Counted from the stretch's first letter, positions 12,356 to 36,567 are shown. The stretch is 36,567 bases of DNA from a virus (IMGVR_UViG_2671180349_000007), one strand, 5' to 3'. Notes: generated by a model from the sequence alone, not told the origin. Numbers and translations are program-made.

Positions 12356-12421
12356 ATTGCTCTAATAATTCCATATTTTTAAAACGTGATGTACACTCAT
12401 CACGTTTTTTATTAGAGCAAT
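12356..12421. promoter_or_regulatory. bivalent C1 operator pair enclosing a terminator hairpin
   Basis: ATTGCTCTAATAATT at 12356-12372 and its inverted partner ATTAGAGCAAT at 12405-12421 flank the hairpin aaaacgtgatg-tacact-catcacgtttt. Confidence 0.6.
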
Positions 12422-12435
12422 CTATAAGGTGCACT

Positions 12436-12654
12436 ATGTGGCCATTCCGACGGAAATATCACTACTGGCTGATCGCCTTTGTTACGCCGACCGGCGGTAT
12501 CAGGCATGTCATCACCAGGTATCGCAACAAGAGACTCACCTTAGCCAGAATTTTACAGGCTGCCATAGGTGAGGGACTGGATACAAATTGCGTAGTCCTT
12601 CCACCTTCATACTTAGGAAAAATGACCGAAGCACAAGCTAATACGGAACTTTGA
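12436..12654 (+). CDS. small hypothetical protein (72 aa)
   Basis: AAGGTG RBS; stop is followed 1 nt later by the next ATG. Confidence 0.45.
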   Translation: MWPFRRKYHYWLIAFVTPTGGIRHVITRYRNKRLTLARILQAAIGEGLDTNCVVLPPSYLGKMTEAQANTEL

Positions 12655-12655
12655 A

Positions 12656-13918
12656 ATGAGCACTTCAGCACAAAACCAATCAATCGAAAATGTATCTATC
12701 CCTGACGTCCTGAATGCCGGTATCCCGGCCATTATCCAGAACATCCGGGCCGCGCAACGCCGCGTTAGTTGTGATGACCTCACAGCACGTTTTTTTGATA
12801 ATGCGGTTCAGTCAGCGGAGATGCTTCACGCACAGCTTATTGATGTTTATAACGCAGAAGCTGATAGCCATAACTCCATGGTAGATGCAGCTGAAAATAT
12901 GCAGTTGGATCTCGGTCTGAAGGGTAAAGAAATTGAAGAGCTTCAGCTGGAAATTGAACATTTGAAACGCCAGCAACAGGACGCGATCGACGATGCGACG
13001 CATGACGCCAACCAGCGTGCTGATAATGCCGAACGTATAAGCATTGAGCTGGAAACAAAACTCAATGAAATGACCACGATGGTTGAACTGCGGAACTCAC
13101 AGATTTCAACGCTAAAATCTCAATATAAAGAGATCATGAAACTTGATCCTTTTAACCTTGAGAAACGCTATAACAAAGCTAAAAGCGAGCGACAGGAACT
13201 GCGTAAGCAGGTCGCCGACCTTAACCAACAGCTCAAAAAAACTATTAAAGATGCAAGCGAAGCGCGCGTGGCATTTGCTAATAAAAAAGCAGAGGTTACC
13301 GCGCTGGTTAATGAGAATGCCAAATTTGCGACGCTCAAGAAGGAAATGTATGGCATTACTGAGCGCCGTTTCCCTGCAAGCAAACTTCATCCGACGTTAG
13401 GGCAAATCTCCTTCTTCCCGCGCCTCCTGGCTTATGGGATCTCATCGCCTAAAGAGTTCAATAACGAGCGTCCTTATATCGTTTCTAAGCTGGACTTTGC
13501 TTATCAGTTCTGCTGCGACATGGGCTATGCCATTGATATCCGGATCAACGAATGGTTGATGCCAAACTTCCAGCCGTTGGCCATTTTCCGCGAGTTCCAG
13601 CCGGAAGGTTGGGTAGAGTTCTTCCATGAATTGATCTGTAAAGAGATGGAAAGCCGCCGCCCGGAACTGGTCCGTCGAGTTGAGTGGGCGCAAGAGGTTA
13701 TGTTGGCAGAGGCAGAGCTGCCGTTCGAATCGGAATTTATTGATGATCTGGGAGCTAAAGGGCTGCATACCCTGTTTGATGTGGTTACCCGCCGTCATGA
13801 GCAGTTGGTTGTCGAATTGGGTTTAGAGGAAACAGCGGCAAGAAGACTTCTCGATGTTTGCTATGCACGTAGCGATGCATGGGAAAAAGAGAACGGCGGC
13901 ACTATTTACGTTCGCTGA
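12656..13918 (+). CDS. coiled-coil protein with C-terminal globular domain (420 aa)
   Basis: Residues about 60-240 are E/K/Q/L-rich heptad-like; Cys/Trp-containing C-terminal domain; no recognised family. Confidence 0.6.
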   Translation: MSTSAQNQSIENVSIPDVLNAGIPAIIQNIRAAQRRVSCDDLTARFFDNAVQSAEMLHAQLIDVYNAEADSHNSMVDAAENMQLDLGLKGKEIEELQLEIEHLKRQQQDAIDDATHDANQRADNAERISIELETKLNEMTTMVELRNSQISTLKSQYKEIMKLDPFNLEKRYNKAKSERQELRKQVADLNQQLKKTIKDASEARVAFANKKAEVTALVNENAKFATLKKEMYGITERRFPASKLHPTLGQISFFPRLLAYGISSPKEFNNERPYIVSKLDFAYQFCCDMGYAIDIRINEWLMPNFQPLAIFREFQPEGWVEFFHELICKEMESRRPELVRRVEWAQEVMLAEAELPFESEFIDDLGAKGLHTLFDVVTRRHEQLVVELGLEETAARRLLDVCYARSDAWEKENGGTIYVR

Positions 13919-26026: not shown

Positions 26027-26028
26027 AA

Positions 26029-26045
26029 ACTTGCTCTAATAAATT
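26029..26045 (+). promoter_or_regulatory. C1 operator at the start of the ImmI-like region
   Basis: CTTGCTCTAATAAATTG, 15/17 match to consensus, 3 nt after the pacB stop. Confidence 0.55.
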
Positions 26046-26178
26046 GTGTTTTTTGACTGCCGATGTTACATTGAACCTGACCTCTTGCGCCTTGAGGCAT
26101 TTTCGGTTTATGCTTATCAGGCACCTCAGTAAAACGGGTGCCGGGATTGGAACCCCGGATAATGTCAAAGGCGACACA

Positions 26179-26200
26179 GACGCCAAAAGCGTCTTTTTTT
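26179..26200 (+). terminator. intrinsic terminator or attenuator
   Basis: GACGC-caaaa-GCGTC followed by seven T residues. Confidence 0.55.
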
Positions 26201-26224
26201 GTGTCATGCCATCGCACGGCCATA

Positions 26225-26320
26225 CGTAGCGTTTAGCTCAGAGATCAATGGTAGTGCTGGCTGGGCTGCCGAAAGGCAGGCCGGTTCCCTTTGACGCCGG
26301 TAGTTCCAACCCAGTCAGTG
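26225..26320 (+). ncRNA. c4-like antisense regulatory RNA (boundaries approximate)
   Basis: Multi-stem structure (ctggg...cccag enclosing a GAAA-tetraloop hairpin and a ccgg hairpin) exposing GTTCCAA/GGTTCC, complementary to the two GATTGGAACC loops at 26145-26154 and 26334-26343; position upstream of icd-ant as in P1 ImmI. Confidence 0.3.
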
Positions 26321-26385
26321 CTACCGCCATTGAGATTGGAACCTCACGCGGTAGCTCCTTAACTTAGTCAAAGGAGGCTGCCATT

Positions 26386-26607
26386 ATGGCTACTATCCCT
26401 ACCCCAACTCATCCTGAATTTATCTGGCGCTTTTACTCCTGCCAGAAACGTCACTATCACTTCGTTATTGCACCGACAGAAGATGAGGCTCGCTCTCAGC
26501 TTCCTGATGCACCCTGTATTTTCTCCGCCCGTTTTTCTACTGATTCGCGCAATTCTCTCAGTTACTGGTGCCTCCCTGTTAACACTTCTGCTCAGGAGGG
26601 ACTATGA
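26386..26607 (+). CDS. icd: Icd-like protein (73 aa)
   Basis: AAGGAGG RBS; 73-aa ORF overlapping the ant start (ATGA), the P1 ImmI arrangement. Confidence 0.55.
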   Translation: MATIPTPTHPEFIWRFYSCQKRHYHFVIAPTEDEARSQLPDAPCIFSARFSTDSRNSLSYWCLPVNTSAQEGL

Positions 26608-27659
26608 GAACGTCATTAGTCACCCGTGAAGAGATGATCGAGGCAATTGAACAGCACACTGCCTGTATCAGTACCAGGGATATACCGGGCGTTATTGCCA
26701 ACTACTTCATGATCACCAAACAACTTTACCGGAGAAAGGACAAGAACGCTGTTCACCGCATTCTGTTGTCTGATATCCGCGAATACCTGCTCGAACAGGG
26801 GCATCTGAATTACGCAACCGTCGCAGCCGAAACACGCAAGGAGGCACACAGAATGAAAGCAAGCAAACCAGATGTTGTCGTTACAAAGCCTTTGACAGCA
26901 ACCACACCAGCACCGGTCATGGATGCTATCCCCAACACCGGAGACACAATCGACAGCCAGACGCTGTTAAAGATGGTTAATGAGGCGCGTAAGTTATGTG
27001 GGGAACCATTAGTAAGAAATAATAAGTTTATTGAGAAGGTTGTGGATGAGCTTGAAGGTGAGACCTACACAAAAAGTGTAGGTCGCAAAAATGGTGCAAA
27101 CATAGACATTATCACCATGACTTTCAAACAAGCCCTGCGAGTCGCCGCGCGCGAGTCAAAAGCGGTCCGCCGTTCGCTGATCGACAAGCTGGAGGAGTTG
27201 CAGCAGGTTAGCGCTGCTTCTCCAGCGATCCCCCAAACATTGCCCGAAGCTCTGCGCCTGGCTGCCGAACTGGCTGAACAAAAGCAACTTCTGGAACAGA
27301 AAGCCCACCAGCTAAATCAGCAGCTGGTGGCCGCAGCCCCCAAAGTCGATTTTGCCGACCGGGTATCAGTGGCTAAGGGGATCCTGATTGGAAATTTTGC
27401 AAAGGTTGTTGGACTTAAGCAAAACGCGCTGTTTGCCTGGTTACGGGAGAACGGCATCCTGATTGCGTCCGGCGGACGTAAAAATGTGCCATTCCAGCAG
27501 TACATCAACGCCGGGTATTTCACTGTGAAAGAAGTGGTGCTAGATGATGAAGATGGCTACCAGATACGGCTGACGCCTCAATTAACGGGGAAAGGCCAGC
27601 AGTGGTTGACGCGTAAGCTGCTCGATGCTGGCTTGTTAAAACCGGTGGCGGCTGAATAA
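26604..27659 (+). CDS. ant: antirepressor Ant, KilAC-type C-terminal domain
   Basis: 351-aa ORF coupled to icd; C-terminal ILIGNFAKVVGLKQNALFAWLRENGIL region typical of phage antirepressors. Confidence 0.7.
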   Translation: MRTSLVTREEMIEAIEQHTACISTRDIPGVIANYFMITKQLYRRKDKNAVHRILLSDIREYLLEQGHLNYATVAAETRKEAHRMKASKPDVVVTKPLTATTPAPVMDAIPNTGDTIDSQTLLKMVNEARKLCGEPLVRNNKFIEKVVDELEGETYTKSVGRKNGANIDIITMTFKQALRVAARESKAVRRSLIDKLEELQQVSAASPAIPQTLPEALRLAAELAEQKQLLEQKAHQLNQQLVAAAPKVDFADRVSVAKGILIGNFAKVVGLKQNALFAWLRENGILIASGGRKNVPFQQYINAGYFTVKEVVLDDEDGYQIRLTPQLTGKGQQWLTRKLLDAGLLKPVAAE

Positions 27660-27666
27660 TGGAAGA

Positions 27667-27688
27667 ATGCCCGGTTGATGCCGGGCAT
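27667..27688. terminator. hairpin between convergent ant and c1
   Basis: ATGCCCGG-ttgatg-CCGGGCAT followed by an A/T-rich stretch. Confidence 0.45.
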
Positions 27689-27691
27689 AAT

Positions 27692-28543
27692 TTATTGCGC
27701 GCTTTCGGGGTTGTCGTTTACTGGCTGCCCCTTCTTAGTTTTACGGCTGCGCGTAACTGATGCGGCTGACTTAACCTTTTTCTCTTCGCGAGTGATGGCA
27801 ATTTGTTTTTTTACATTTTCAATATCTGCCAGGCGATATATTTTTGCCTGCGGCCAGCGGTCGCAGATGATCGGTTCTATGGAGTCATAAAGGCTAAATT
27901 TTGCTTTCTCGAATTCACCGTTGATGATGATTCCATCACGGAGAGTTTCATCGCAGATAAACACGCCACACAGCGGCACATGGTAACTAACTGATTTACC
28001 GTTATTGTAGTTAGGACTACTGGAGATGTAGTGAACGCGCAGCATTGTTTCGCTAAAGCCGTGTACGCGCATACGGAATTTTTCATCCTCCGGGTACTGC
28101 TTCATTAGCTCTTTTGTTGCTTCCAGGTTCTCTATGTATTTCGCACTGTGCTCATTGAACCCCGCGCTTTTTTGGATGCGAATGTCCTTATCAATCAGAT
28201 GAATAATGCGGCCAGCGGTCATGTTGACGCTGTTTACAGCTTCTGTCTGATAGGTCGTAACCTTACGCACACCGCGAAGGATGTTAGGCACAGGATATAA
28301 AATAGTCTTTGGGATATTTAGGTCTGGGTACTGTTCCAGTTCCCGCGCCATTAAAGTCCATTTATCAATTTCAGCCTGAATGCTGTCCGTTTCTTTGAAC
28401 GGCAGAACGACAACCGGGCGTACAGGACGACCGTCGCTGGCGGCATCAACGTGTTGGGCGCGTGCAACAGCTTTTTTTAGAAAGAGATCCCTGAAGCTGA
28501 CGAACTCCTGGTACAGTTGTTCGCCGTAGACATAATTTATCAT
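27692..28543 (-). CDS. c1: C1 master repressor
   Basis: 283-aa protein MINYVYGEQLYQEFVSFRDLFLKKAVARAQHVDAASDGRPVRPVVVLPFKE... recognised as P1 C1. Confidence 0.95.
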   Translation of the reverse strand: MINYVYGEQLYQEFVSFRDLFLKKAVARAQHVDAASDGRPVRPVVVLPFKETDSIQAEIDKWTLMARELEQYPDLNIPKTILYPVPNILRGVRKVTTYQTEAVNSVNMTAGRIIHLIDKDIRIQKSAGFNEHSAKYIENLEATKELMKQYPEDEKFRMRVHGFSETMLRVHYISSSPNYNNGKSVSYHVPLCGVFICDETLRDGIIINGEFEKAKFSLYDSIEPIICDRWPQAKIYRLADIENVKKQIAITREEKKVKSAASVTRSRKTKKGQPVNDNPESAQ

Positions 28544-28637
28544 TGATCCTCCTCCAGAATTGACATGGTCAATAACGCCCGGCTGAGAAAACCGGTCATT
28601 ACTGACCTATATTATAGAGGGATCAAACAAAAATAAT

Positions 28638-28654
28638 AGATTTATTAGTGCATT
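28638..28654 (-). promoter_or_regulatory. C1 operator between coi and c1 (Op99a-like)
   Basis: agatttattagtgcatt, a partial reverse-complement match to the operator consensus. Confidence 0.45.
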
Positions 28655-28863
28655 TATTGTGAGTCTAACTGGTTAGTTGCCATGAGATATTCGATTGTGT
28701 CAGTGAGGTCATCCAGGTCGTCTTGGGTGATGCGGTACTCCTGATTGGATATCTTTGAGTAGTGTTCAGCAATGGCGCGGGCAGCGTCGGTTTCGGCAGG
28801 GTCTACAGATAAAGCGTTAGAGCAATGTCTAACGTCGTCGATGGTTGGTTGAATGAAAGCCAT
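28654..28863 (-). CDS. coi: C1 inactivator Coi
   Basis: 69-aa ORF immediately upstream of c1 on the same strand; size and position as recalled for P1 coi. Confidence 0.8.
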   Translation of the reverse strand: MAFIQPTIDDVRHCSNALSVDPAETDAARAIAEHYSKISNQEYRITQDDLDDLTDTIEYLMATNQLDSQ

Positions 28864-29101
28864 AATTATGCCTCACTGTATTGACAACACAGAGCCTGAA
28901 GCTCTGACCTACTGTTTCACCCATGATCCATGCTGGGGTAATCTAACAACATTGCGCTGTGTGTAAGATGAGCAATGCATAGCTGTAATGCCGTTGTATA
29001 AGGTTTCCCTGTTTGCTCATTTCCTTCTGAGCCGCTCTACAACGCTGAAGACACATTAAATAGTGAATCCAAAGCCGTATTACGTAACGGCGGCAAAACT
29101 A

Positions 29102-29118
29102 TAATTTATTAGAGCAAT
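29102..29118 (-). promoter_or_regulatory. C1 operator upstream of coi (Op99 cluster)
   Basis: TAATTTATTAGAGCAAT, reverse complement of the consensus. Confidence 0.6.
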
Positions 29119-29184
29119 TGTCAAACAACTATGAAAAACAATCCAGTTTTTAGCTGGTGGAGTGGGATTTTTCTCTCAAAATTT

Positions 29185-29201
29185 ATTGCTCTAATGATTC
29201 T
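29185..29201 (+). promoter_or_regulatory. C1 operator upstream of coi (Op99 cluster)
   Basis: ATTGCTCTAATGATTCT. Confidence 0.6.
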
Positions 29202-29244
29202 TGATTTTTGTGCGCAGCTGGACGTAAACTCCTATTCGGACCTG

Positions 29245-29278
29245 ATAACTTCGTATAGCATACATTATACGAAGTTAT
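29245..29278. other. loxP recombination site
   Basis: Exact 34-bp ATAACTTCGTATA-GCATACAT-TATACGAAGTTAT. Confidence 0.98.
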
Positions 29279-29349
29279 CTTAAGGGTTATTGAACATGAT
29301 CAATTTACCTGTAAATCCATACAGTTCAATACCTTATCAGGTCAAATAG

Positions 29350-29371
29350 TGATCACTTGATCATTTGATCA
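29350..29371. promoter_or_regulatory. Dam-site cluster (three TGATCA hexamers at 8-bp spacing) in the cre upstream region
   Basis: TGATCACTTGATCATTTGATCA; consistent with methylation-sensitive cre promoter control described for P1. Confidence 0.5.
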
Positions 29372-29467
29372 AGGTTGCGCTACGTAAAATCTGCGAAATG
29401 TTGGCAGTGTTAGTGCTCCAGATTTCGCGTAGCGCACTTAGCACCACCAATCAATCAGAGGTGAAAA

Positions 29468-29689
29468 ATGGGATATTCAGCTGCTAAAGTGTCCACTCAT
29501 CTTGAGCTTGAGAAAAACCGTGGTTACTGGCGGGCAAAAGGGTTTGAGCGTGATAGTTACCAACTGTCATTATCTCGCGGCGAAGAGAAAATAGAACGCA
29601 CGCGCGGTCGCTGGCGTTTCTATGACGAGAACCATAACCAGGTAAAGGCAGAGCCAATCCTGTACACTCTGCTGAAAACAATAATTTAA
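29468..29689 (+). CDS. hypothetical basic protein (73 aa) between loxP and cre
   Basis: GAGGTG RBS; preceded by a long imperfect palindrome (29377-29435). Confidence 0.45.
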   Translation: MGYSAAKVSTHLELEKNRGYWRAKGFERDSYQLSLSRGEEKIERTRGRWRFYDENHNQVKAEPILYTLLKTII

Positions 29690-29708
29690 CTTGATCATGA
29701 GGTGATGA

Positions 29709-30104
29709 ATGTTTAATGGCCTGACAGATGCCAAGGTAAACGCCTTACTGAACGACGCAAAACAAAAAGCTGCTAACCCTGGAACGAATGAAAATGAACG
29801 TGCTATGGCTGTTGCAATTTGGGAGTTAGCAGAAGAAGTAAAGCGAAACCGCTTACTATACACTCGGGTTTACCAGCAATTTGATGGTGCGAGCTGGATA
29901 GATATCGAAGAGGCTGAATATGCAACATGCAAAAAAGAAAAAAAGATTGTTCGGATTTTGCATAAAGCAGCAACCCCAATCACTGTAGAAATCCCCGATC
30001 ACAGATATTTCGAGAACGATGATCTACCAGGGGATGTGATTCGAATTATTGATGAGATACTTCATGAACAAGGCTTAACTGTTAAAATTACGCATAATAA
30101 ATGA
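29709..30104 (+). CDS. hypothetical protein (131 aa) immediately upstream of cre
   Basis: ORF visibly more AT-rich than cre; its stop overlaps the cre ATG (ATGA). Confidence 0.5.
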   Translation: MFNGLTDAKVNALLNDAKQKAANPGTNENERAMAVAIWELAEEVKRNRLLYTRVYQQFDGASWIDIEEAEYATCKKEKKIVRILHKAATPITVEIPDHRYFENDDLPGDVIRIIDEILHEQGLTVKITHNK

Positions 30105-31132
30105 CTAATTCGTTAACCGTTCACCAAAATTTGCCTGCATTGCCGGTCGATGCAACGAGTGATGAGGTTCGCAAGAACCTGATGGACATGTTCAGGGATC
30201 GCCAGGCGTTTTCTGAGCATACCTGGAAAATGCTTCTGTCCGTTTGCCGGTCGTGGGCGGCATGGTGCAAGTTGAATAACCGGAAATGGTTTCCCGCAGA
30301 ACCTGAAGATGTTCGCGATTACCTTCTATATCTTCAGGCGCGTGGTCTGGCAGTAAAAACTATCCAGCAACATTTGGGCCAGCTAAACATGCTTCATCGT
30401 CGGTCCGGGCTGCCACGACCAAGTGACAGCAATGCTGTTTCACTGGTCATGCGACGGATCCGAAAAGAAAACGTTGATGCCGGTGAGCGTGCAAAACAGG
30501 CGCTGGCGTTCGAACGCACTGATTTCGACCAGGTTCGTTCACTCATGGAAAATAGCGATCGCTGCCAGGATATACGTAATCTGGCATTTCTGGGGATTGC
30601 TTATAACACCCTGTTACGTATAGCCGAAATTTCCAGGATCAGGGTTAAAGATATCTCACGTACTGACGGTGGGAGAATGTTAATCCATATTGGCAGAACG
30701 AAAACGCTGATTAGCACCGCTGGTGTAGAGAAGGCACTTAGCCTCGGGGTAACTAAACTGGTTGAGCGATGGATTTCTGTCTCTGGTGTAGCTGATGATC
30801 CGAATAACTACCTGTTTTGCCGCGTCAGAAAAAATGGTGTTGCCGCGCCATCATCCACCAGCCAGCTATCAACTCGCGCCCTGGAAGGGATTTTTGAAGC
30901 AACTCACCGATTGATTTACGGGGCAAAAGATGACTCTGGTCAGCGATACCTGGCCTGGTCTGGACATAGTGCCCGTGTCGGTGCCGCGCGAGATATGGCC
31001 CGCGCCGGAGTTTCAATACCGGAGATCATGCAAGCTGGTGGCTGGACCAACGTAAATATTGTCATGAACTACATTCGTAACCTGGATAGTGAAACGGGGG
31101 CAATGGTGCGCCTGCTGGAAGATGGCGATTAG
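30101..31132 (+). CDS. cre: Cre site-specific tyrosine recombinase
   Basis: 343-aa protein nearly identical to P1 Cre (MTNSLTVHQNLPALPVDATSDEVRKNLMDMFRDRQAF...). Confidence 0.98.
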   Translation: MTNSLTVHQNLPALPVDATSDEVRKNLMDMFRDRQAFSEHTWKMLLSVCRSWAAWCKLNNRKWFPAEPEDVRDYLLYLQARGLAVKTIQQHLGQLNMLHRRSGLPRPSDSNAVSLVMRRIRKENVDAGERAKQALAFERTDFDQVRSLMENSDRCQDIRNLAFLGIAYNTLLRIAEISRIRVKDISRTDGGRMLIHIGRTKTLISTAGVEKALSLGVTKLVERWISVSGVADDPNNYLFCRVRKNGVAAPSSTSQLSTRALEGIFEATHRLIYGAKDDSGQRYLAWSGHSARVGAARDMARAGVSIPEIMQAGGWTNVNIVMNYIRNLDSETGAMVRLLEDGD

Positions 31133-31149
31133 CCGTTCATTTGCGCTTG

Positions 31150-31166
31150 ATTGCTCTAATCATTTG
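31150..31166 (+). promoter_or_regulatory. C1 operator downstream of cre
   Basis: ATTGCTCTAATCATTTG. Confidence 0.55.
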
Positions 31167-31182
31167 ATATTTATGGTGACAC

Positions 31183-31494
31183 ATGCGGAAGGATTTCAAA
31201 ATAGACGGAAAATATGTGGTGCTGTCTGTAAGCTCTCAAATTCAGTCACCATCTGTCATTGTCACCGTAAAGTTGAGCGATAGGATGCCTGATATCGACT
31301 CGATATCTGTTGCGTTCCCCGTTAAAAGCATGCGGAGTGCTGAACATTTTGTGATGAATGCAACGGAGGAGGAAGCACGGCGCGGGCTTACTAGAGTGAT
31401 GGCGGAATTTGGCGAACTCCTGGGTAAGGTAAACAATGCCCTTTCAATCAGTTCAGCAAGATCCAAAGCGTTAACAGCTTCCATGATGAAATAA
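31183..31494 (+). CDS. Cra-like (cre-associated) protein, 103 aa
   Basis: ORF directly downstream of cre and its operator; assignment by position only. Confidence 0.45.
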   Translation: MRKDFKIDGKYVVLSVSSQIQSPSVIVTVKLSDRMPDIDSISVAFPVKSMRSAEHFVMNATEEEARRGLTRVMAEFGELLGKVNNALSISSARSKALTASMMK

Positions 31495-31500
31495 AAAAAA

Positions 31501-31525
31501 GCCTGGCAAGGAGCCAGGCTGCACA
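31501..31525 (-). terminator. hairpin with T-run on the minus strand
   Basis: GCCTGGC-aagga-GCCAGGC preceded by eight A residues on the plus strand. Confidence 0.4.
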
Positions 31526-31705
31526 AAAGAGCGGGGTTGTATTCCGCATCCAATCAATCAAGAAGGAGTATAGCACACAGGTACTGAAGAGAAAAAATGT
31601 GATTCGCGATAAATAAAATAGCCACTATTGTTATAATTAATTGCCATAATTGAGTTATGGCTTTAGTCAACTACGAAGACATTGCCATTATAGACTCCGT
31701 GACAT

Positions 31706-31731
31706 CATTGGCGGCCGAAAGGCCGCCTTTT
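31706..31731 (+). terminator. hairpin with T-run on the plus strand
   Basis: GGCGGCC-gaaa-GGCCGCC followed by TTTTTT. Confidence 0.45.
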
Positions 31732-31735
31732 TTAA

Positions 31736-32689
31736 TCATTCAGCCGCCACCGGTTTTAACAAGCCAGCATCGAGCAGTTTACGCGTCAACCACTGTTGGC
31801 CTTTCCCCGTTAATTGAGGCGTCAGCCGTATCTGATAGCCATCTTCATCATCCAGCACCACTTCTTTCACTGTGAAATATCCGGCGTTTATGTACTGCTG
31901 AAACGGTACATTTTTACGTCCGCCGGACGCAATCAGGATGCCGTTCTCCCGTAACCAGGCAAACAACGCGTTTTGCTTAAGCCCAACAACCTTTGCAAAA
32001 TTTCCAATCAGGATCCCCTTGGCCCCTGATACCCGGTCGGCAAAATCGACTTTAGGGGCGGCGGCCACCAGCTGCTGATTTAGCTGGTGGGCTTTCTGTT
32101 CCAGAAGTTGCTTTTGTTCAGCCAGCTCGGCAGCCAGGCGCAGAGCTTCGGGGAGTGTTTGGGGAATCACTGGAGAAGCAGTGCTAGCCTGCTGCAATTC
32201 CTCCAGTTTGTCGATCAGCGAACGGCGGACCGCTTTTGACTCGCGCGCGGCAACTCTCAGGGCTTGTTTGTAGGTCATGGAGATAGTTTCAGATGTTGTG
32301 TTGTTTAATTTTTGCACTACGAAAATTTCGTAGTACTCACCATCCAGTTCATCCTTAACTCTGGCAATAAAATCATTATTGCGAACTGGTTTTTCGCTAC
32401 ATAATTTCCGCGCTTCATTGACCATCTTTAACAGCGTCTGGCTGTCGATTGTGTCTCCGGTGTTGGGGATAGCATCCATGGCCGTTGCTGGTGTGGTTGC
32501 TGTCAAAGGCTTTGTAACGACAACATCTGGTTTGCTTGCTTTCATTCTGTGTGCCTCCTTGCGTGTTTCGGCTGCGACGGTTGCGTAATTCAGATGCCCC
32601 TGTTCGAGCAGGTATTCGCGAATATCAGACAGCAGGATACGGTGAACCGCGTTCTTGTCCTTTCTCCGGTAAAGTTGTTTGGTGATCAT
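31736..32689 (-). pseudogene. second ant-like antirepressor copy, mosaic, 5'-truncated by transposon insertion
   Basis: 317-aa ORF matching residues 35-351 of the 26604 ant gene except for a divergent central block; its first codon abuts the transposon IR at 32693. Confidence 0.65.
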
Positions 32690-32692
32690 GAA

Positions 32693-32730
32693 GGGCTCCG
32701 TTTGGGAAACGGAAAATATTGTACGTTAAG
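32693..32730. repeat. transposon left 38-bp terminal inverted repeat
   Basis: Perfect inverted match to 36530-36567; the tnpA stop lies inside it, as is typical for the Tn3 family. Confidence 0.8.
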
Positions 32731-35713
32731 ATTGTTTTTTGTACTGGCTAACATCAACTGCTCGCAAAGGACGATACTTCCCTTTTGCCAGCTTCTTATT
32801 GTTTCTCCATATATAGTCTCCTGTCAGATTTATGTGCTCCCAGCCCAGCGGAGACAAGTGTGACAACAGTTGATCATTGATATGTAGTCCCTTCTTTTTC
32901 AGCAGATTAATGGCGTTTTCTATATATACGGTATTCCACAAAGTGATCGCGGCAGTAAGCAGCGTAAGCCCACTGGCGCGGTAACTCTGGTTTTCAAGAC
33001 CACGATCCCTTATTTCTCCCAAACGATGCATGAAGACAGCTCTGGCAAGGGCATTCCGGGCTTCCCCTTTGTTCAGACCTGCCTGAACCCTACGACGAAG
33101 CGCCGGGTCGCGGAACCAGTCCAGCATGAACAGTGTTCGCTCAATGCGACCGATTTCTCTCAACGCCTTAGCAAGGCCATTCTGTTTCGGATAACTGGCC
33201 AATTTTTTCAGCATCAGAGAAGCGGTCACTGTTCCCTGTTTTATTGAGGTCGCCAGCCTCAGAATTTCATTCCAGTGTATTTTTATCTCTTTGAGATTCA
33301 GGGGGGTTGTGGAAATAATTGACTGTAGAGCAGGATAGTTATCAGCTTTACCTTGAATAAACAAACGTTTGTCATGCAGATCCCGGATCCTTGGAGCAAA
33401 AGCGAATCCCAGCAGATGCATTAGTGCAAAAACATGCTCCGTGAAACCTGCTGTATCGGTGTAATGTTCCGTTATTTCAAGGTCACTTTCGTGATACAGA
33501 AGACCATCAAGTACGTGGGTGGAATCACGAACACGGCTGATTACTTTGGTATAAAACGGACTATATTGATCTGAGATATGCGTATAAAACTGCACTCCCG
33601 GTTCCTGACCGTACTTCAAATTAACCTGACCTGCATATCGTCCGTGGCTGCCAACCCTAAAATTCTGACCGTCAGAAGATGAGGTGGAACCGTCTCCCCA
33701 TAACGCAGCCAGCGGTCGTGACTTTTGAGCATTAACCAGTTCTGCCAGTGCAGCAGCGTACGTTTCATCACGGATGTACCATGCTTGTATGTTTTCCAGC
33801 GAAGCCCGTGTGGTTCCCGGACAGGACTCTGCCATTTTTGCCAGCCCCAGATTGATGCCGTCTGCCAGGATAGTGGTTAGTAGTAAACGGTTATCCTGAG
33901 GACGGATTAGCGGATTCTTAAGATGAGTAAAATGTCGCGAGAAGGCAGTCCATCGCTCGACTTCATCAAGTATCTCTGTGATTTTGGGGTGCGGTAGCAT
34001 GTTGTAAATCAGGTCGGCCAGGGGAGAGACTGTTGAAGGAACGCTGTTATCCAGTGGGGTGATCTTTACACCTTTATCTGAAATATCCACATCAGGAAGA
34101 TCCCCTGCGACAGCCATTGCGTTAACTTCCTCCAGACGGGAGGCCAGTAGAGTCAGTCTGGCATTAAGATAAGCCCCACATTCTGTGCCAACAGGTAAAT
34201 TTAACAGGTTATTATTTAATAACTTTTCGAAATCATCGTTAGGCATAAGATAATCATCAAAGTTTTTGTAGCGCCGGGAGCCCCTGACCCAGATATCACC
34301 CGCCCGCAGCGCCTCCTTTAGCTCATTCATTGCGCAAATTTCATAGTATTGTCGGTCAATGCCTGAGGGAGTGATCACCATCTTTCTCCAGCTCTCAGGA
34401 ATGAAATCCAGTGGTGCCGATGCAGGAACCTTTCGTAGCTGTTTACGGTACATATCACGAATAGTTTCAAGGGCATCATTAAGCGGCAAAGCTGCCGAAG
34501 TGGCTCTCAGTTGCAGGGCCGATAGAAAACGAAAAGAATATTTGCGCAATGTACTGAATTTTTCGGTAATAAGATGAAGCGGCTCAAAATTATCCTTACG
34601 TGCAAGAAGCTTTGTTTCCTCCAGACTGGCGACAAAATCGTCCCACGGTAACACTCGTTCAATAGCAGACAGAGGATCTTCGCCTGAGTTGCGTGCATCC
34701 AGGATAGCCTGGCCAACAGAAACATACTGACGTAACTTTTGCTGTATCAACTTGCCCGTTTTCTGAAGACGCTCGGCCTGCTGATGTTTTGCCCGACTGA
34801 ACATGCTGCCCAGAATACGCTCATGCAGTTCTATAATTTCATCAATGATTGTGGCTCTGACCTCAGTCAGTACACAGACCATCGTTGCGTATCGACGAGC
34901 AGGGGAAAAATCAGCCAGATCGCGACTGCTCATTTTGCGGCCCTCACGCGCGAGTTTCAGCAATCGGTTCTGGTGAACGGTTCTCTCCACTCCTTCCGGC
35001 AGCGCCAGATCTTCAATAGCGTTAAGGCGGTCAATGTGTTGCAGGACATTCTTTCCATTGATTTTCCCCGGAGGTTGAAGCAGCCACGTCAAACGGGATA
35101 TTTGTTTTTCATTTGTCACCAACAGGGCATCAAGCGCAGATTTATGCGTGATATCAAGGTGCGCATTCAGCGTTGTATAAACTGTTTTATCACCCAGTGT
35201 CATTGCTTCAGCACAGGTACGTTCCAGAACATCAATGCCAGGAATAATAATTCGCTGTTGATGCAGGTACTTCAATAACTCCTCTGCGATAAGTATGCCT
35301 CTGTCCGTTCTGGTAGACAGAGGAAGCAGATGCCGGATACATTCTTTCTGAAGCGCACCGTTAAAGGCTTTCAGTTCAAGATATCGATAAAGTTCCTGCA
35401 TATGCTCACGTCTGGTGGTATCACGACCGGAAACGTATTCCTGCCAAAGCTCTGCTGATAATTTAAGTCTGGCACTAATGATTTTTAGCAATTTTGCGGG
35501 TGGGGATGATTTTTTATCCGGAGCAAACCCAATACTTTTCAGATAACAGAGAAGAACGGCAAAACCAAACCGGCTGGCAGGTTTACGGTGAACATTGATA
35601 ATTGCCAGATCCTGTTCACTGAAATACGTCATTCGAGTTAGTGTTAACTCATCGTCTGGTAATGCCAGTAATGATTCTTTTTCCGACTGCGAAAGAATCT
35701 GCCTCCTTGCCAT
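32726..35713 (-). CDS. tnpA: Tn3-family DDE transposase TnpA
   Basis: 995-aa protein with conserved Tn3-family blocks (HYTDTAGFTEHVFALMHLLGF, ILRLATSIKQGTVTASLMLKKL, GLNKGEARNALARAVF). Confidence 0.95.
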   Translation of the reverse strand: MARRQILSQSEKESLLALPDDELTLTRMTYFSEQDLAIINVHRKPASRFGFAVLLCYLKSIGFAPDKKSSPPAKLLKIISARLKLSAELWQEYVSGRDTTRREHMQELYRYLELKAFNGALQKECIRHLLPLSTRTDRGILIAEELLKYLHQQRIIIPGIDVLERTCAEAMTLGDKTVYTTLNAHLDITHKSALDALLVTNEKQISRLTWLLQPPGKINGKNVLQHIDRLNAIEDLALPEGVERTVHQNRLLKLAREGRKMSSRDLADFSPARRYATMVCVLTEVRATIIDEIIELHERILGSMFSRAKHQQAERLQKTGKLIQQKLRQYVSVGQAILDARNSGEDPLSAIERVLPWDDFVASLEETKLLARKDNFEPLHLITEKFSTLRKYSFRFLSALQLRATSAALPLNDALETIRDMYRKQLRKVPASAPLDFIPESWRKMVITPSGIDRQYYEICAMNELKEALRAGDIWVRGSRRYKNFDDYLMPNDDFEKLLNNNLLNLPVGTECGAYLNARLTLLASRLEEVNAMAVAGDLPDVDISDKGVKITPLDNSVPSTVSPLADLIYNMLPHPKITEILDEVERWTAFSRHFTHLKNPLIRPQDNRLLLTTILADGINLGLAKMAESCPGTTRASLENIQAWYIRDETYAAALAELVNAQKSRPLAALWGDGSTSSSDGQNFRVGSHGRYAGQVNLKYGQEPGVQFYTHISDQYSPFYTKVISRVRDSTHVLDGLLYHESDLEITEHYTDTAGFTEHVFALMHLLGFAFAPRIRDLHDKRLFIQGKADNYPALQSIISTTPLNLKEIKIHWNEILRLATSIKQGTVTASLMLKKLASYPKQNGLAKALREIGRIERTLFMLDWFRDPALRRRVQAGLNKGEARNALARAVFMHRLGEIRDRGLENQSYRASGLTLLTAAITLWNTVYIENAINLLKKKGLHINDQLLSHLSPLGWEHINLTGDYIWRNNKKLAKGKYRPLRAVDVSQYKKQS

Positions 35714-35763
35714 ATAGCCTTCCTTGTAAATTATTTAGTGCGTTATTTTTGATGAAAAAGTTA

Positions 35764-35870
35764 TTGCATAAGGGTATACCCTTATGCAATAGACAAAACG
35801 TGACGGCACTCCAATAATGACATAACCTATATGCGATAGAATAAATGCAATAATCTAAACGCGATAGCGT
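35764..35870. promoter_or_regulatory. putative res site
   Basis: Perfect 26-bp palindrome TTGCATAAGGG-TATA-CCCTTATGCAA plus downstream GCGATAG repeats between divergent tnpA and tnpR. Confidence 0.5.
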
Positions 35871-35879
35871 GGTGGAAAA

Positions 35880-36521
35880 ATGTTTATCAGAGCTTATTTA
35901 AGGGCATCGACGGAAGATCAGTTCGCCGATCGGGCAAAAGAGATGCTGGAGCAGTTCGTTCAGGAGCGGGGGCATAAAATCGCCAGCTACTACCGGGAGA
36001 ACATCAGCGGCACAAAACTAGACCGCCCGGAACTGGGACGCTTACTGATAGACAGTCATCGCAATGATATCTTGCTGGTCGAGCAGATAGACCGCCTGAC
36101 CCGTCTCAGCAACAGTGACTGGATAACGCTGAAAAAGCAGATAGAACAACACGAGTTGCGGATTGTCAGTCTTGATGTGCCCACATCATGGCAGGCTCTG
36201 TCAGATAAAGATCCTTCGCAAGCGGACCCGATCACCCGCACAGTAATAACCGCAATAAATAATATGCTTATCGACCTGATGGCTGCAATGTCGCATAAAG
36301 ACTGGCTGAGTCGTCGTCAACGACAAAAACAGGGAATTGAACGTGCCCATACTTTAGGTAAGTATCGGGGCAAACAGGCAGATCGGGAACGACATCAGAA
36401 AGTAATGTACTACCGGCAGATCAAGAAACTGAGCATCCGTGAAACGGCGGAGGTGACAGGCTATAGTACTTCCCAAGTTTGTCGCATTCAGGCGCTCTAT
36501 AAAGAGGTTAAGCCTGATTAA
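35880..36521 (+). CDS. tnpR: serine recombinase/resolvase TnpR
   Basis: N-terminal RAYLRASTEDQ catalytic-serine motif, LLVEQIDRLTRL, and a C-terminal HTH. Confidence 0.85.
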   Translation: MFIRAYLRASTEDQFADRAKEMLEQFVQERGHKIASYYRENISGTKLDRPELGRLLIDSHRNDILLVEQIDRLTRLSNSDWITLKKQIEQHELRIVSLDVPTSWQALSDKDPSQADPITRTVITAINNMLIDLMAAMSHKDWLSRRQRQKQGIERAHTLGKYRGKQADRERHQKVMYYRQIKKLSIRETAEVTGYSTSQVCRIQALYKEVKPD

Positions 36522-36529
36522 AAAATAGC

Positions 36530-36567
36530 CTTAACGTACAATATTTTCCGTTTCCCAAACGGAGCCC
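36530..36567. repeat. transposon right 38-bp terminal inverted repeat
   Basis: Reverse complement of 32693-32730. Confidence 0.8.

Follow-up and report, generated by a model that had tools for sequence, protein, structure and literature searches.

What is the role of a long inverted repeat, built from two antirepressor (ant) genes, that brackets the master repressor gene, the loxP site and the recombinase gene cre of a P1-like phage-plasmid? The question is raised by a viral DNA of 36,567 nucleotides (IMGVR_UViG_2671180349_000007), hereafter the window, which is one whole draft contig, CYBW01000035.1 of assembly GCA_001283845.1. An original prediction, made from this DNA, described two mosaic copies of one gene whose common ends could mediate inversion of the intervening segment, and whose divergent centre suggested two antirepressor specificities. 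Our analysis leads, with high confidence, to another explanation: the window is the immC/lox end of a P1-like phage-plasmid, in which two accessory operons of the immI type, in convergent orientation, occupy two insertion hot spots flanking c1-coi-loxP-cra-cre-c8. The second ant copy has been cut by a transposon, and the inverted repeat is a by-product of paralogy.

Both open reading frames (ORFs) exist as first described: a 351 amino-acid ant gene at 26604-27659 on the plus strand (copy A) and a 317 amino-acid ORF at 31736-32689 on the minus strand (copy B). They do point inward at a segment of about 4 kb: the stop-to-stop spacer measures 4,076 bp, and within it lie c1, coi, an exact loxP site, cra, an extra 131 amino-acid ORF, cre and c8. 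A repeat search of the window returned two inverted arm pairs, 26705-27068/32330-32693 (364 nt, 91% identity) and 27105-27670/31725-32290 (566 nt, 93% identity), and in each ant copy a divergent block of ~140 nt sits between both arms. Measured in 30-nt windows, the identity of the two copies is ~97% over 26705-26985, 53-80% over ~26985-27125 and ~94% from 27125 to ~27660, up to the stop codon; the two longest stretches without a mismatch measure 135 and 65 bp. The nucleotide alignment confirms the pattern of similar ends and divergent centre, but the “nearly identical” ends correspond to 91-97% DNA identity. The two proteins are identical at 288 of 317 positions, all but a few of the differences falling inside the divergent centre.

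The distribution of these differences explains the persistence of the repeat. Differing codons are 7 synonymous and 2 nonsynonymous in the N arm, 22 and 4 in the 3' (C) arm, and 8 and 22 in the central 48 codons. Within a plasmid, the arms of copies A and B are ~92-93% identical when their central cassettes are alike, compared to 94-100% for the same site between plasmids, in a test that used a fixed 560-nt window and is limited by its overlap with cassette-linked sequence. This comparison gave no sign of homogenisation of the arms within a plasmid, and concerted evolution was rejected since the A/B identity lies below the same-site identity. Because the arm differences are mostly synonymous, and because the identity within a plasmid does not exceed that at the same site between plasmids, the long inverted repeat is kept by constraint at the protein level, and not by recent duplication or homogenisation.

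Judged from its sequence, copy A is part of a complete operon of the P1/P7 immI type (module A, Table 1), with its C4 antisense RNA gene, loop and target boxes, coupled icd and ant genes, and nested ant1/ant2 starts. The C4 loops (b' = CCCTTTGAC, a' = GTTCCA) find exact complements of 7-8 nt at the four boxes a1, b1, a2 and b2, in the same geometry as in P1 and P7. The icd stop overlaps the ant1 start through an ATGA (26604-26607), and an in-frame ant2 start, AAGGAGG N7 ATG (MKASKPD...), is nested at 26853, positioned as in P1/P7 ant2. The Ant1 protein exhibits a KilAC domain at residues 239-340; it shares 76% identity, as well as its cassette type, with P1 Ant1. C1 operator-like sites number 10 in the window versus 0.21 expected, and the site at the head of module A has an equivalent in the P7 annotation, Op(c4), upstream of c4.

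A comparison with P1 and P7 bears out the difference first noted: no ant gene lies between pacB and c1 or after cre/c8 in these phages, whose immI adjoins kilA-repL, far from c1. In P1, the pacB-c1 spacer is only 24 bp long, and ref lies after the c8 terminator: module A stands in place of this spacer, and module B in place of ref, between the c8 terminator and the mat operator. The refuting condition named with the original prediction nevertheless applies: the arrangement is recurrent and annotated across the P1 family. Relatives display the order pacB, C4-icd-ant, c1-coi-loxP-cra-cre-c8, ant-icd-C4, mat, and both modules are found on at least 30 closed plasmids of E. coli, E. albertii, E. 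fergusonii and Shigella. A count at 80% coverage cannot cleanly split two-module from A-only plasmids, and junction-specific queries were used instead on 5,426 complete E. coli genomes: of the 700 genomes with a match, 369 have an ant directly next to c1, and of 741, 53 have one directly next to c8. Plasmid pB19429_2 (NZ_CP142921) even possesses three C4-icd-ant modules, the canonical immI by kilA-repL (L013 27144-28717) and those of sites A and B (L001 4122-5717 and 9390-10920), each with a different combination of C4 a'/b' loop sequences.

Parts of this organisation are in print. Venturini et al. 2019 (PMC6906374) reported an ant insertion between pacB and c1 in RCS47 and pTZ20_1P, and mentioned separately icd-ant1/2 homologues after the cre region, in RD-1 of pSvP1; the two insertion sites and the gene content are those described here, while the insertions were in separate plasmids. 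RCS47 matches the window across pacB-ant-c1 at 96.9%. A second c4-icd region has also been noted for a D6-like plasmid. Our literature search returned no description of the convergent module pair, its C4 RNAs or its cassette alleles. The paired modules are an ordinary, under-described feature of P1-like phage-plasmids, located at known variable sites.

The RNA parts of the modules establish that they are paralogues and not one duplicated gene, as had been proposed: they are two c4-icd-ant operons with leaders of different Rfam types. Among the relatives, A-site leaders match isrK, whereas B-site leaders match the P1/P7-type c4-a1b1 family. Covariation between C4 loops and targets is perfect in all 12 modules parsed, which define nine distinct a'/b' codes, those of P1 (CACTAAC/CTGTCA) and P7 (CACAATC/CTGCTA) included. 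The codes of sites A and B differ in both plasmids for which the two sites were parsed; in plasmids with unparsed A-site loops, the C4 sequences still differ between sites.

Module B of the window is interrupted. The homology of copy B to copy A and to intact relatives ends at 32692/32693, where the inverted repeat of a Tn3-family transposon starts, and the ATG at 32689 encodes Met36 inside ant1. Two antirepressor ORFs are present, as noted at first, but the minus-strand one is a truncated remnant and this element has one intact copy only. The module is not a complete operon in the window: its operator, leader, C4, icd and ant1 start are not on the contig, while intact B modules of relatives carry C4 and a c4-a1b1 leader. 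As far as the transposon repeat, the remnant matches the uninterrupted B-site ant of pB19429_2 at 100% identity. E. albertii plasmids from bats carry copies of the transposon at 99.5% identity, with matches that begin at window position 32693; the contig ends exactly at the outer repeat of this element, whose right flank is not on it. The contig CYEU01000067.1, from a second assembly, shares the 8.8-kb layout and the transposon/ant junction, and starts 63 nt inside the same repeat; no closed plasmid in PLSDB exhibits this junction, which was seen in two draft assemblies only. The orphan ant2/ant remnant lies downstream of tnpA, both on the minus strand, and from this disposition an expression of ant2 by read-through from tnpA is conceivable.

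The Tn3-family element itself is cryptic, encoding only tnpA and a resolvase. To note, L003 (NZ_AP042707), a further plasmid with both modules and with a frameshifted A-site ant, has a distinct Tn3-family transposon between its c1 and coi genes (9292-13027); transposons seem to strike the immC neighbourhood often.

The divergent centre was analysed by aligning the A and B Ants of ten plasmids. Three parts emerge: a conserved Ant1-specific N-terminus (residues 1-86), a hypervariable cassette, and a conserved coiled coil followed by KilAC (Pfam ANT). The cassettes are either of a short type, as in the window and in P1, or of ORF6N-like types with several alleles. Structure prediction returned the short cassette, ~90 residues long, as a folded unit (predicted local distance difference test, pLDDT, of 82-91); a sequence search for homologues of solved structure gave none at E<=1. 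This short cassette is the N-terminal domain of many ~220 amino-acid prophage antirepressors from Arsenophonus, Salmonella, Pantoea and E. coli, the C-termini of which differ. Two alleles recur, GEPxVRNNKFIEK..YTKSV in window copy A and P1, and GEKxVRNNDFIAR..YEIFV in window copy B, where the region 32189-32452, holding the divergent block, is ~91% identical to Stx2a-phage antirepressor genes. Structure prediction and alleles together place the block within a discrete, folded and exchangeable cassette. It is the core of a ~90-residue unit that probably sets target specificity, and the proposal of two antirepressor specificities is plausible.

The cassettes are not tied to a site. The VDEAN cassette is found at site A in L001, L008 and L010 and at site B in L003, L004 and L011; the TDEGN cassette is at A in L011 and at B in L008 and L010; and the A-site allele of the window occurs at site B in L006. 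The A and B cassettes differ in 10 of the 10 evaluable plasmids. The B-site Ant of L006 (6895-8292, minus strand) is 465 amino-acids long and assembles two cassettes in tandem, a short one of the K type followed by an ORF6N-like one; it resembles an intermediate of recombination or a protein with two specificities.

Could the repeat nevertheless act as a switch, the ant arms serving as a RecA-mediated recombination substrate to invert the c1-loxP-cre segment? The arms and their exact runs are long enough for homologous recombination, and two successive inversions could yield the swap of cassette alleles between sites observed in L010 versus L011. A synthetic inverted isomer was therefore built, with pacB-leader-icd-ant joined to the reverse-complemented c8-cre, which is the crossover product of either arm. 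At a query coverage of >=80%, it was matched by none of 811 PLSDB records and none of the 812 E. coli genomes with any match, the best matches (74%) being the native B side; the native layout, for its part, is on at least 30 closed plasmids. As no PLSDB or E. coli record covers the inverted isomer, a fixed inversion is absent from these collections. Furthermore, the arms are 6-9% diverged, mostly at synonymous positions and without homogenisation, and copy B is truncated in this element. Neither a dedicated recombinase nor short crossover sites were found at the arms; nearby are only Cre, with a single loxP, and the transposon resolvase. An invertible immunity/loxP segment is thus very unlikely. 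As for an assembly artefact, the possibility raised with the original prediction, mis-joined repeats might have created the second copy or its adjacency to c8, the window being a whole draft contig that stops right at the edge of a repeat. Closed plasmids, however, have an identical c8-to-ant junction and an identical overall layout, the second assembly mentioned above independently has the same junctions, and the copies differ at enough positions for short reads to resolve them: the probability of an artefact is close to nil.

The origin of the pair can also be viewed in other ways. A recent local inverted duplication of one ant gene, the centre of which would then have diverged rapidly, fits the high similarity of the N- and C-terminal parts and the length class and cassette type common to both copies. 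It is extremely unlikely when confronted with the unrelated leader types and the different C4 loops of the two sites in relatives, with the substantial synonymous divergence between the arms, and with a copy B that is 100% identical to the B-site gene of another plasmid but only 93% to copy A. Both central alleles are, moreover, old and widespread in other prophages, and the sites are occupied independently (369 genomes for A versus 53 for B). A subtler view is that non-crossover gene conversion through the arms shuffles Ant specificity cassettes among differently regulated operons, within one plasmid or between co-resident immI-type modules, without inverting the interior. The presence of the same alleles at both sites, leaders that stay site-specific while cassettes move, the tandem cassettes of L006 and the A/B difference in all evaluable plasmids agree with such an exchange. 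Independent recombination of each site with a common phage and plasmid pool explains the shared alleles equally well, however; the 3' arms travel with their cassette, without homogenisation inside a plasmid; and, in a sample of 11 plasmids with ~6 alleles, finding A different from B ten times out of ten is only weakly unlikely by chance. We regard this exchange as rather doubtful, and retain two paralogous immI-type operons, inserted on either side of immC, as the explanation of the pair.

How would these operons work? In the immI mechanism of P1 and P7, as given in PMC8198154 and in the P7 annotation, C1 represses transcription, C4 blocks the translation of icd, and so that of ant, and Ant1/Ant2 bind C1. 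By analogy, C1 would repress the promoter of module A, and C4 would pair with a2/b2, so that icd translation would be blocked and the translationally coupled ant would stay silent; on release, Ant1 and Ant2 would bind and inactivate a repressor. That Ant A may bind and inactivate C1 itself is suggested by homology only, through its identity to P1 Ant1. Module B occupies the P1 ref site; in relatives, it is a second full operon, with a P1/P7-type leader and a different C4 recognition code. In the window, the insertion of the Tn3-family element after ~codon 35 of ant1 would have parted the remaining ant from its promoter, C4 and icd. Strong purifying selection on the Ant1-specific N-terminal part and on the coiled coil and KilAC of the C-terminal part would account for the inverted repeat.

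Several points weigh against this picture. A promoter scan upstream of module A gave no strong sigma-70 match adjoining the operator-like site. The leader, C4 and icd of module B would lie beyond the window, their presence in this genome being deduced from relatives. Plasmids that have one and the same C1 protein differ in their cassette alleles, which misfits a simple tuning of Ant to the resident C1 and hints, at the level of sequence comparison, that the Ant targets may be other than this C1. Finally, database assemblies give a consensus orientation, in which rare inverted subpopulations would stay hidden.

Table 1. Features of the two modules, of the immC/lox segment between them and of the interrupting transposon (window coordinates)
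Feature	Position	Strand	Evidence or remark
Module A	26027-27691		Fills the pacB/c1 gap
C1 operator-like site, CTTGCTCTAATAAATTG	26030-26046	+	Directly after the pacB stop, head of module A; 2 mismatches to P1 operator consensus
isrK-like leader	26121-26199	+	Rfam RF01394, 61.9 bits (gathering score 50)
C4 target a1, TTGGAAC	26147-26153	+	In the isrK-like leader; complementary to C4 loop
C4 target b1, GTCAAAGG	26164-26171	+	In the isrK-like leader; complementary to C4 loop
Leader terminator, hairpin and T run	26178-26194	+	End of the isrK-like leader
C4 antisense RNA gene	26244-26331	+	Rfam RF01695, 77.1 bits (gathering score 45), full-length model
a2/b2 target region	26336-26376	+	Upstream of icd
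C4 target a2, TTGGAAC	26336-26342	+	Between C4 gene and icd
C4 target b2, GTCAAAGG	26367-26374	+	Overlaps the icd Shine-Dalgarno AAGGAGG
icd-like gene, 73 aa	26386-26607	+	PHROG 1426, 3e-45; RefSeq relatives “host cell division inhibitor Icd-like”
ant1 of module A, 351 aa	26604-27659	+	Pfam PF03374, 2.6e-31; PHROG 63 “anti-repressor Ant”, 1.5e-116
Divergent block of copy A, “K” allele of short cassette (CGEPLVRNNKFIEK...YTKSV)	26985-27125	+	P1 type
c1, master repressor	27692-28543	-	Relatives “phage repressor protein C1”; Pfam Phage_P7_repressor_C1 on the source contig
coi, C1 inactivator	28654-28863	-	Homologous position annotated in P1
loxP, exact 34-bp site	29245-29278	+	Sequence match
cra, 73 aa	29468-29689	+	Before cre; P1 annotation
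Extra 131-aa ORF	29709-30104	+	Between cra and cre; PHROG 20152, function not assigned
cre	30101-31132	+	ORF, P1 annotation, PHROGs
c8, 103 aa	31183-31494	+	After cre; P1 nomenclature
ant remnant of module B	31736-32692	-	ant1 from ~codon 35 to stop; Pfam ANT, 1e-31
Nested ant2 of copy B	31736-32545	-	Complete, own ribosome-binding site
Divergent block of copy B, “D” allele of short cassette (CSEKPVRNNDFIAR...YEIFV)	32270-32413	-	
Tn3-family transposon, 3,875 bp	32693-36567		Interrupts ant of module B
Transposon terminal inverted repeats, 57 nt	32693-32749 and 36511-36567		88% complementary
tnpA	32726-35713	-	Pfam PF01526 (DDE_Tnp_Tn3), 1.3e-147
Serine resolvase	35880-36521	+	Pfam PF00239, 1.6e-20

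The segment between the modules is named here after P1 (Table 1). The ORF after cre, first called cra, is c8 in the P1 annotation, and cra precedes cre. The 131 amino-acid ORF overlaps the cre start by an ATGA; it is absent from P1 and P7 and present in some relatives (L004 5252-5647). Upstream of the c8-side terminator, the Oref operator/ref promoter region of P1 is retained (window 31620-31700 versus L016 1957-1985), the operator being degenerate now that ref has given way to module B. Close to the contig start, a tRNA gene (1137-1209; Rfam, 64.7 bits) belongs to a P1-like tRNA region.

The annotation of the C4 gene is confused in public records. A 39 amino-acid “ash family protein” coding sequence (CDS) of RefSeq overlaps it (window ~26248-26367, L001 4249-4368, L006/L008/L009 1749-1868), and Pfam Phage_ASH is recorded on the window's source contig. 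This CDS is probably an RNA gene called as a protein, and “orf45”/STnc1160 of the Gifsy-1 isrK locus may be such a case too.

Among the closest known systems is immI of P1 and P7 (Op51/Op(c4), a1b1, c4, a2b2, icd, ant1/ant2), with which module A shares the order of parts, C4, the loop/target pairing with b2 over the icd ribosome-binding site, the icd/ant overlap and the nested ant1/ant2. The B-site leaders of relatives are near-identical to those of P1/P7, with loops that mix P1 and P7 sequences. Differences lie in the location, kilA-repL for immI and immC for modules A and B; in the leader of module A, of the isrK and not the c4-a1b1 type and with different a'/b' codes; in the fact that the modules come on top of a canonical immI in at least one relative; and in the disruption of copy B. 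The Gifsy-1 isrK-orf45-anrP locus of Salmonella (Hershko-Shalev et al. 2016, PMC4825925) likewise exhibits an isrK-type leader followed by an antirepressor coupled to an upstream ORF. As in that locus, the leader terminator of module A would release a short RNA with C4-complementary a1/b1 boxes; unlike it, module A has an Icd-like ORF and P1-type Ant1/Ant2, and no AntQ-type downstream target is evident. The Cin/cix C segment of the P1 family also has inverted repeats around a few kb, whereas the ant repeats are coding sequence, 6-9% diverged, and are devoid of dedicated recombinase and short crossover sites. Modular phage regulators combining KilA-N, ORF6N or Bro-N with KilAC (ANT) were reportedly described by Iyer, Koonin and Aravind in 2002; here, it is alleles at two set positions within a single phage family that are shuffled, and an extra Ant1-specific N-terminal extension is present in the proteins.

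The inverted repeat itself changes little for the biology of these elements: it reflects two paralogous immI-type operons around an immunity region that is apparently not rearranged. What does change is the status of the textbook P1 map, which does not typify P1-like plasmids from nature: among those in complete E. coli genomes, roughly one in two bears an additional C4-icd-ant module by c1. For annotation, the calling of C4 RNA genes as “ash family protein” CDSs is a problem. The most interesting remaining point is the multi-module, multi-code immunity organisation of natural P1-like plasmids. One speculative reading, to which we grant a low probability, is that up to three orthogonal C4/Icd/Ant circuits, immI and the two modules flanking immC, have their own two-box codes and take up Ant cassettes from a common stock by recombination via the conserved arms; the pair would then be not redundant copies but a combinatorial arsenal of immunity and counter-immunity against various competitors or resident repressors. 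Some natural plasmids combine two or three modules that differ in antisense code and in Ant cassette, and they offer a testable handle on heteroimmunity, superinfection and cross-induction in phage-plasmids that spread resistance genes.

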